A DNA stretch of 64,000 bases from Mytilus trossulus (Eukaryota), in assembly GCF_036588685.1 (NCBI RefSeq), contig NC_086374.1:58280001-58344000 (forward strand). Direction: 5' to 3'. The notes under the pieces are model-generated. The model was not told where the DNA came from. It did no database searches and was given only the letters and a program-made list of their open reading frames with translations. Shown in pieces: positions 50,053-51,432 of this stretch (position 1 is the stretch's first letter; each line of letters opens with the position of its first letter). A program made the translations under genes and the position numbers.

Positions 50053-51432
50053 TATCTCTTTTTGTATTGTTATGAGTTACAATTTATGACAAAAATAAGC
50101 AAATACCCCTCAAAACAACATCTGATAAACAAATTTAATAATACTTTTAGATATTTGGATGATATTTTGGCTCTTAATAATGACGACTTCAGTATGTATA
50201 TTAATGAAATTTATCCTGCTGAACTTACTTTAAATAAAGCTAATACTAACAATGACCACTGCCCTTTCCTCGATCTTGATATCTATTTCACTAACTAAAA
50301 TTTATGATAAAAGGGATGATTTTTCATTTCCTATCGTTAATTATCCGTTTTTAGATGGTGACGTTCCCTTGTCACCATCTTACGGTGTTTATATATCTCA
50401 ACTTGTACGATTCGCTCGTGTATGTAACAATGTTTTAGATTTTAACGAGAGAAATTTATGTATTACTGAAAAATTATTACACCAGGGTTTTCGATATCAC
50501 AAACTAGTCAAAACATTTACTAAATTTTATCATCGTTATAAAGACATCATTCGTAAATATAGCTCAACATGCAGACTTCTTATACGTTCAGGTATTTCAC
50601 ATCCAATTTTTTATGGAAATATTCTTTATAAAGCACAAATGTGTCAGTATTCACCTCAGAAACTTACAAAACCTTTGAATAGACTTATTAAGAAGGGATA
50701 TAATTACGATACTGTTGTCAAGTCATTAAAGATTGCATATTTTGGCGTTAATATTGAGTCACTGATAAGGTCTTTGCGTCGGAACTAAACACATTTATTC
50801 TAAAAACAGTTGTTGGCATGACACGGGTTATGTTCTTCTCATATATGTTATGATGGTATGATACTAAACCCCTTGGCCTAACGGGAAGGATTGTGCCTGA
50901 TGTTCATATGATGAAATCATAATCTTTCAGTCAGTTTATTTGAAGTCTGGAGCTGGCATGTCAGTTAACTGCTAGTAGTCTGTTGTTATTTATGTATTAT
51001 TGTCATTTTGTTTATTTTCTTTGGTTACATCTTCTGACATCAGACTCGGACTTCTCTTGAACTGAATTTTAATGTGCGTATTGTTATGCGTTTACTTTTC
51101 TACATTTGTTAGAGGTATAGGGGGAGGGTTGAGATCTCACAAACATGTTTAACCCCGCCGCATTTTTTCGCCTGTCCCAAGTCAGGAGCCTCTGGCCTTT
51201 GTTAGCCTTGTATTATTTTAATTTTAGTTTCTTGTGTACAATTTGGAAATTAGTATGGCGTTCATTATCACTGAACTAGTATATATTTGTTTAGGGGCCA
51301 GCTGAAGGACGCCTCCAGGTGCGGGAATTTCTCGCTACATTGAAGACCTGTTGGTGACCTTCTGCTGTTGTTTTTTTATTTGGTCGGGTTGTTGTCTCTT
51401 TGACACATTCCCCATTTCCATTCTCAATTTTA
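50053..51432 (+). mobile_element. 5'-truncated Penelope-like (Naiad-type) retroelement in intron 1 of the lectin gene
   Basis: RT motifs LFLYCYE, FRYLDDIL, CPFLDL, YDKRDDFSFPIVNYPFL..YGVYISQLVRFARVC. Stop at 50788 with no C-terminal GIY-YIG. About 640-nt 3' region shared with copies at 13729 and 60883. Confidence 0.88.
50840..50910 (+). promoter_or_regulatory. SECIS-like element (form 2) in the retroelement 3' UTR
   Basis: AUGA (50850-53), helix GGUAUGAUACU/AGGAUUGUGCC, unpaired AAA (50866-68), CCC/GGG mini-stem, GA (50899-900), lower helix CAUAU/AUAUG; 52 nt after the stop codon. Confidence 0.75.

Follow-up and report, generated by a model that had tools for sequence, protein, structure and literature searches.

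A SECIS-like hairpin in a truncated Naiad retroelement, its probable selenoprotein-coding family, and a twister-like motif in the same 3' UTR

A hairpin in the 3' UTR of a truncated Penelope-like retroelement copy is very probably the SECIS element of a selenoprotein-coding family of the Naiad clade, in which four in-frame UGA codons are likely read as selenocysteine; the copy lies in a window of 64,000 nt, the whole stretch of DNA analysed, and the reading is built on sequence comparison. In eukaryotes, selenocysteine (Sec) insertion involves the SECIS element, SBP2, eEFSec and tRNA-Sec. In the proposed mechanism, the SECIS in the 3' UTR would have the four UGA codons decoded as Sec by the host machinery, and the 1002-aa endonuclease-reverse transcriptase (RT) protein would be made only with four read-throughs, so that transposition would depend on the host selenium supply.

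The truncated copy, its hairpin and its surroundings

The copies recognised in the window, and the features of the main one that bear on the SECIS, are the following.

50056..51432 (+): Naiad Penelope-like retroelement copy, 5'-truncated, with the RT C-terminus and the entire 3' UTR (identity to L001)
50056..50788 (+): RT C-terminal coding fragment, ending in TAA at 50786-88 (comparison with L001)
50840..50910 (+): type II SECIS-like hairpin (Rfam SECIS_1, geometry and helix II covariation)
13720..14647 (+): second, shorter copy, with the SECIS core destroyed and the 5' half of the twister-like motif deleted
60882..61358 (-): third copy, 3' UTR only, beginning downstream of the SECIS, its twister-like motif with a poly-C expansion

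The main copy is 97.5% identical to positions 2764-4093 of L001, a full-length relative, and its 3' boundary at 51432 is where family RNA reads stop; no clear target-site duplication was found for 50056-51432, only a short imperfect repeat at both junctions. It differs from L001 by 14 substitutions, besides a private 14-nt deletion at 50296 that breaks the frame of the RT fragment and an insertion of 6 nt, also private, in the hairpin's apical loop (50871-76). The RT fragment contains no TGA because the last TGA of the family (codon 522) lies upstream of the truncation point, which is the explanation that the first-pass annotation had offered for the lack of a visible UGA. Truncated and frameshifted, this copy is dead and yields no protein.

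The hairpin core comprises AUGA at 50850-53, AAA at 50866-68 and GA at 50899-900, with a CCC/GGG mini-stem at 50869-71/50883-85, and helix I begins at 50840, 52 nt downstream of the TAA; both the geometry and the spacing agree with what had been annotated. The helix described there as 11 bp long is present but consists of 10 pairs over 11 positions, since helix II proper (50855-62/50890-97) is paired at 8/8 positions (5 Watson-Crick and 3 G-U) and is extended by an A.G mismatch and two further pairs. The covariance-model check suggested by the same annotation gave a divided result: Rfam SECIS_1 (RF00031) is the top match on 50840-50910, with 26.2 bits and an E value of 0.011 (901 nt against 4227 families), but the gathering cut-off of 35 bits is reached neither by this copy nor by L001 (32.3 bits) or L004 (28.0 bits), and nothing passes in a scan of the whole window at the gathering cut-offs of Rfam. 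The private insertion is absent from most family RNA reads in four runs (165/204, 207/280, 215/285 and 145/189 reads without it), and without these 6 nt the hairpin scores 32.3 bits with SECIS_1. Its folding energy is no better than that of shuffled sequences (z from -0.26 to +0.76), and a loose SECIS descriptor finds 3 matches in the window versus 4.3 in shuffles. A single hairpin of this kind is only suggestive, and the case therefore rests on the family. SnoRNA-like Rfam matches across the region (E 2-8) were dismissed as chance.

The copy at 13.7 kb had been said to lack both AAA and GA, and this is indeed so: AAA is replaced by GGG (14157-59), GA by CA (14184), and no SECIS match is obtained. 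Its 38 substitutions include 23 A>G versus 1 T>C, clustered at 13881-14172 and taking in the AAA, while other copies carry 0-1 A>G changes. This run looks as if the RNA had undergone ADAR-like A-to-I hyper-editing before it was copied into DNA and inserted, ADARs being described for molluscs in the literature available; the GA was lost by a separate G>C change. As for the idea that 5'-truncated copies scatter SECIS elements around the genome, the SECIS copies found here look inert or decayed.

A host gene can be modelled around the main copy from the following predicted exons.

48602..48677 (+): predicted host exon 1, signal peptide, phase-1 donor (the strongest hydrophobic candidate of phase 1 within 36000-54540)
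54547..54792 (+): predicted host exon 2, PAN domain (Pfam PAN_1, E 4e-5)
59865-60032 and 62342-62519 (+): predicted lectin-like host exons, joined in frame to exon 2

The four exons join in frame through GT-AG, phase-1 introns and would encode a signal peptide, a PAN domain and lectin-like sequence, with predicted intron 1 (48678-54546) containing the retroelement copy in sense orientation. The placement of a sense copy inside a host intron, as first annotated, thus fits the four-exon model but stays a prediction, as essentially no RNA reads fall on these exons in four runs and no splice junction was seen; a homologue search with the PAN exon found nothing, and the Atlas returned 'PAN domain' only. 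Because the copy sits sense inside this predicted intron, its SECIS is probably inert and would be spliced out unused. Element RNA reads are about equal on both strands in the four runs, as expected of passengers in other transcripts.

The window also holds an LTR retrotransposon on the minus strand (18851-26566) with LTRs 99-100% alike and ORFs broken into several frames, which we take from their motifs to be BEL/Pao-like; LINE-type reverse transcriptase fragments (10499-12303, minus strand); a tandem array of about 10 copies of a 166-nt unit (29376-30906), with related units at 9028-9326; long nested inverted repeats with 498-nt arms at 93% (34633-38522), foldback or MITE-like; and an exact 287-nt tandem duplication (53308-53881), either a recent event or an assembly artefact.

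In-frame TGA codons and the hairpin across the family

Eight related loci (L001-L008) were obtained from one scan of metagenome contigs. L001-L003 are contigs of a high-copy repeat, for which collapsed assemblies are possible, and L002 and L003, being 99.9% alike, are counted once. L001 is a unit of about 4.0 kb whose 3' end is repeated at its 5' end (pseudo-LTR), and its one ORF of 1002 codons runs through a zinc-finger-like motif, GIY-YIG, CxC, DKA and RT. The GIY-YIG endonuclease is N-terminal and aligns to homologues (IIY...QYVG with CCHH-type cysteines at residues 92-108), and the ORF closes after the RT, with no endonuclease following it. The motifs of Naiads are recognisable as C50-U55-C58 (CX4CxxC), C385-x-C387 and DKAANN preceding U522; Pfam gave no significant match on protein P0121, and one distant homologue has PF01541. 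On these sequence features the family belongs to the Naiad clade of Penelope-like elements, with the N-terminal GIY-YIG that had been anticipated, and read depth climbs towards the 3' end in agreement with 5' truncation in the family. Between L001 and L002 (93% nucleotide identity) there are 130 synonymous versus 58 non-synonymous codon differences, a pattern of two subfamilies under purifying selection as judged from these counts. No relatives turned up when the full protein was scanned against viral and prokaryote collections. A piece of a Mytilus edulis gene model is 84% identical to the Naiad endonuclease (about 54 residues of that region in P0183, a sulfotransferase 1A1-like model, as an exonised piece or a gene-model artefact), and a related cluster includes M. 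edulis and M. californianus proteins; from these Mytilus relatives, and from a likeness, judged by eye, between window 48180-48250 and the 3' end of Naiad_Mgal, the host of the family is probably a mussel.

That full-length members would carry in-frame UGA codons aligned to Cys was predicted in the first-pass annotation and is borne out. L001, L002 and L003 have TGA at codons 55, 86, 97 and 522 and no further stop, and in L001 the 1002 codons contain four TGA, zero TAA or TAG and zero frameshifts. The TGA codons stand at the second Cys in CX4CxxC, the Cys preceding GIY-YIG, the first Cys in CCHH and the one that follows DKA. Among 49 uninterrupted homologues of at least 800 aa, drawn from 150 representatives at 50% identity, the ungapped rows have Cys at these four columns in 36/36, 42/42, 43/43 and 49/49 cases (13, 7, 6 and 0 rows being gapped). 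Nine of the 29 Cys/TGA positions of the protein are conserved, and all four TGA are among those nine, for which simple arithmetic gives a chance of 0.5%.

When the part of the protein between U97 and U522 served as query, 71 clusters were obtained, 57 of them with the DKA motif: 38 stop immediately ahead of the DKA Cys, 18 show Cys there and one (P0136) Trp, and in the remaining 14 clusters, 8 stop exactly before the first Cys of CxC; these counts are to be read with the caveat that database proteins hide which stop codon ends them and that a query ending at the DKA column favours such matches. Among the 150 representatives, only 6 end at the DKA column versus 56 with Cys. In a quick tree of 71 rows, from which P0013 was omitted as too short and in which the long-branch row P0337 is mis-anchored, 39 stop rows fall together with 4 rows that have Cys and one that has Trp (SH-aLRT 98), a topology that fits one Sec clade with reversions, the direction being unproven; the tree contains database proteins only, and published Naiads were compared by eye. 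At DNA level, L004 has TGA at the first Cys of CxC and L007 at the Cys434 column, and L004, L007 and L008 have Cys at the DKA column and keep the SECIS-like hairpin; the endonuclease region of L008 is missing.

A SECIS-type hairpin core lies 46-70 nt past the end of the ORF in 8/8 loci (6 distinct sequences), according to a descriptor drawn up after inspecting these loci, with a chance of 0.007 per 200 nt. Rfam SECIS_1 recognises 5/8 loci at 28-32 bits; L005, L007 and L008 give no SECIS match at E<=5. Six of the loci were aligned with the two window copies, and only the counts for helix II are taken from these 8 rows: this helix is 93.8% paired, with 6/8 pairs altered on both sides, whereas slid controls pair at 31-56% and none of 500 shuffles reaches the covariation score. 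The tandem G.A/A.G core, helix II and the apical AA, 11-13 nt from the core, are conserved by covariation. The hairpins of L004 and L007 are divergent, and these two loci have TGA at other Cys columns. It is the recurrence after the ORF end in all eight loci, together with the helix II covariation, that raises the hairpin above chance.

If the TGA codons were ordinary nonsense mutations in a dead family and the hairpin a chance look-alike, each TGA would need one step from TGT or TGC, and a SECIS score under the cut-off, like the roughly four matches per window that the loose descriptor makes in random sequence, would cause no surprise. Such a family would, however, hardly keep 1002 codons free of TAA, TAG and frameshifts, nor show the same four TGA, at conserved Cys only, in two subfamilies under purifying selection, dozens of diverged clusters stopping at the same column and a hairpin that covaries at a fixed position, and this account is extremely improbable. 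It is also very unlikely that the UGA codons are read as Cys or Trp, or by leaky suppression, without a SECIS, with the hairpin acting in RNA stability or RT binding: the inserted residue is not directly proven and one relative (P0136) has Trp at the DKA column, but the TGA codons align to Cys and not to Trp, the GA/GA core, the helix length and the apical AA are kept while the stem sequence turns over, and the available text of PMC8557442 provides a precedent with grade-A SECIS elements. As for the window copy itself, co-option to supply the host PAN/lectin gene with a working SECIS would suit its sense orientation in predicted intron 1, its intact SECIS core and an AATAAA at 51533; against this, a transcript retaining the intron from predicted exon 1 would stop at TAA 48836-38, before any UGA, the four predicted exons contain no UGA, host reads are lacking and the copy is accumulating private mutations, so that co-option is hardly credible. 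The reading retained is that of a SECIS serving the intact members of a selenoprotein Naiad family.

A twister-like motif downstream of the SECIS

About 270 nt beyond the SECIS, the 3' UTR contains a further structured element, absent from the first-pass annotation and found via a weak twister match in L007. Its parts are as follows.

51108..51196 (+): type-P5 twister-like ribozyme motif (Rfam Twister-P5 and match to Table 1 of PMC8501958, as far as available)
51108-16/51188-96: P5 arms
51120-23/51153-56: P2
51124-28: L1 strand GAGGG
51168: private G>T within P3
51171-86: P4 with UCCCAAG loop
51130..51150 (+): two adjacent 10-nt palindromes (51130-39 and 51141-50) in place of the twister P1, predicted dimerisation arms

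The predicted scissile site is U51150^A51151. Rfam Twister-P5 (RF02684) scores the motif at 22.9-23.1 bits (22.9 in the window, E 0.0037 on 131 nt), under the gathering cut-off of 37.6. The order of elements matches the twister table in the accessible part of PMC8501958 (UAA, P2, GC, P3, P4 with GUCCCAAG, GAGGG), and the two pseudoknot pairings of the twister core can form. The motif is present in 7/8 loci, the sequence of L008 ending about 200 nt past the stop, before the site, and L004 has CAA instead of UAA. Pairing across the motif reaches 98.6%, P3 and both palindromes showing compensatory changes, and in each of the four distinct families the best partner of the P5 5' arm is that family's own 3' arm; P2 and P4 give no covariation because they are invariant in the alignment. 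By eye, and in the published consensus sequences as available, the motif recurs, with other palindromes and with compensatory pairs in P2 and the pseudoknots, near the 3' ends of the Mgal, Bpla, Mphi, Scon and Mmer consensi; none was seen in those of Naiad_Pmar and Naiad_Mcor, and the motif is not universal.

No intramolecular P1 helix was found in the motif, which has the two palindromes instead. Each palindrome is retained through double changes, and two such palindromes arise in 342 of 200000 shuffles of the stretch. On their own they hardly fold, whereas self-pairing yields -14 to -18 and about -8 kcal/mol. When the window and L001 copies are folded at minimum energy, the strand with the first palindrome buries the scissile UAA in an alternative helix; dimer formation would therefore free it. 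In the available text of PMC11662667, a study centred on type P1, P1 is reported to be dispensable: defects in it are tolerated and cleavage is not reduced in the twisters tested.

It is somewhat unlikely that the motif is a non-cleaving conserved RNA structure or a DNA promoter or protein-binding site. Several observations would agree with this: a score under the cut-off, the lack of an intramolecular P1, the competing fold, palindromes that could serve as DNA sites, and the fact that no cleavage ends appear in RNA, where no read-end pile-up is listed at the predicted cut in four runs, although fragmented libraries of a high-copy repeat make this uninformative; moreover, the Poseidon hammerhead is described, in the part of the literature available, as protein-assisted and dispensable for insertion in vitro. 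On the other side, every twister core element is present in the published order and sequence, P5 and P3 covary, and both pseudoknot pairings are possible. Self-cleavage of the twister-like motif is likely on this comparative evidence, and a dependence of cleavage on the dimer may or may not hold, the two being about evenly balanced. If active, the motif would cut tandem (pseudo-LTR) transcripts about 360 nt past the stop and release a unit RNA that keeps the SECIS, probably as a dimer held by the palindromes, replacing the hammerhead of other Penelope-like elements.

Elsewhere in the window, a decayed twister-like motif from another Naiad-type 3' end lies at 49249-49308 (minus strand; 31.5 bits with a model built here), and another, at 48180-48250 (plus strand), resembles the Naiad_Mgal 3' end by eye only. 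On viral contigs a degenerate twister pattern proved too loose, with about 8300 matching stretches, and was dropped.

Significance and comparison with known systems

The presence of selenoprotein Naiads in clams and spiders is already known from the accessible text of PMC8557442 (Craig et al. 2021), where two clam and two spider families have type I SECIS elements 1-21 nt after the stop, one of them overlapping it; the statement in the first-pass annotation that some Naiads recode UGA with a SECIS was correct. In the same text, Sec incorporation is presented as a prediction and truncated copies are already proposed as possible SECIS donors. No further publications on selenoprotein transposons were found in the open-access literature. 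The additions made here are a family probably from a mussel, a SECIS of type II, Sec sites beyond the published ones with a different UGA pattern, and an apparent breadth, with 38 database clusters ending at the DKA Cys column. From four published families, selenoprotein-coding transposons would thereby become an apparently large clade annotated as broken genes; this clade, with its repeated Cys/Sec switches, offers a natural experiment on the reasons for using Sec, and it would couple transposon activity to host selenium.

A broader proposal, to which we give an even chance, holds that bivalve Naiads, so far regarded as lacking a ribozyme, have swapped the Penelope hammerhead for a circularly permuted twister cleaving as a palindrome-linked dimer, and that a large, mostly unannotated Naiad clade of tens of families moves Sec on and off at six Cys sites at least; if true, few SECIS carriers in the genomes of mussels and clams would be more numerous than these transposons. 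In the available text of PMC8557442 only hammerheads were sought, twisters are never mentioned, and the lack of hammerheads in Naiads is read as a sign that Penelope-like elements carry ribozymes as mere passengers, an inference on which the twister-like motif bears; no report of a twister in Penelope-like elements was found in the open-access literature. Two unrelated ribozyme classes at the same site with the same palindrome trick, if true, would mean that cleavage is probably part of the life cycle.

The family described here shares the Naiad features given in the accessible part of PMC8557442, namely an N-terminal GIY-YIG, the CX2-5CxxC, CxC and DKA motifs, a unit of 3.4-4.4 kb, 5' truncation and pseudo-LTRs. 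It most resembles, in that text, the clam elements Naiad_Scon and Naiad_Mmer, which have the same succession of N-terminal GIY-YIG, CxC, DKA and RT with a SECIS after the stop, share the UGA positions at the Cys preceding GIY-YIG, at the first Cys of CCHH and at that of DKA, and have an endonuclease region visibly similar by eye. Unlike them, it has an extra UGA, at the second CX4CxxC Cys, a site published for the spider Naiad_Sdum alone; its SECIS is of type II and not type I, and stands 52 nt and not 1-21 nt after the stop; its host is probably a mussel; and its relatives have UGA at the first Cys of CxC and at Cys434, neither listed in the available text. Naiad_Mgal and Naiad_Mcor of Mytilus belong to the same element clade and probably the same host genus, but they are described there as Cys-only with no SECIS reported and form a separate lineage, and the 3' end of Naiad_Mgal shows the twister-like motif by eye while the Naiad_Mcor consensus does not. 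Five DNA motifs of 13-15 nt and one peptide of the family are absent from the supplement of PMC8557442 as available, where line breaks and cut protein lines could mask matches.

Compared with eukaryotic type II SECIS elements (RF00031), the hairpin has the AUGA/GA core, a helix II of about 11 nt, the apical AA and the mini-stem, but is G-U rich, scores under the gathering threshold and is carried by a many-copy transposon. The twister-like motif resembles type P5 twisters (RF02684) and, in the accessible part of PMC8501958, the T-variants of Schistosoma Perere-3, in having UAA, P2, GC, P3, P4 with GUCCCAAG and GAGGG, a weak P1 and a location in a retrotransposon; unlike those variants, it is a P5 permutation in the 3' UTR and not type P1 at the 5' end, has palindromes for P1 and belongs to a Penelope-like element. 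The pLTR hammerheads of Penelope-like elements are minimal, palindromic and dimeric according to the available text of PMC6765202 and PMC7761336, and the motif is like them in its 3'/pLTR position, in the palindrome that takes the place of a helix and in its tandem context, but belongs to an unrelated ribozyme class.
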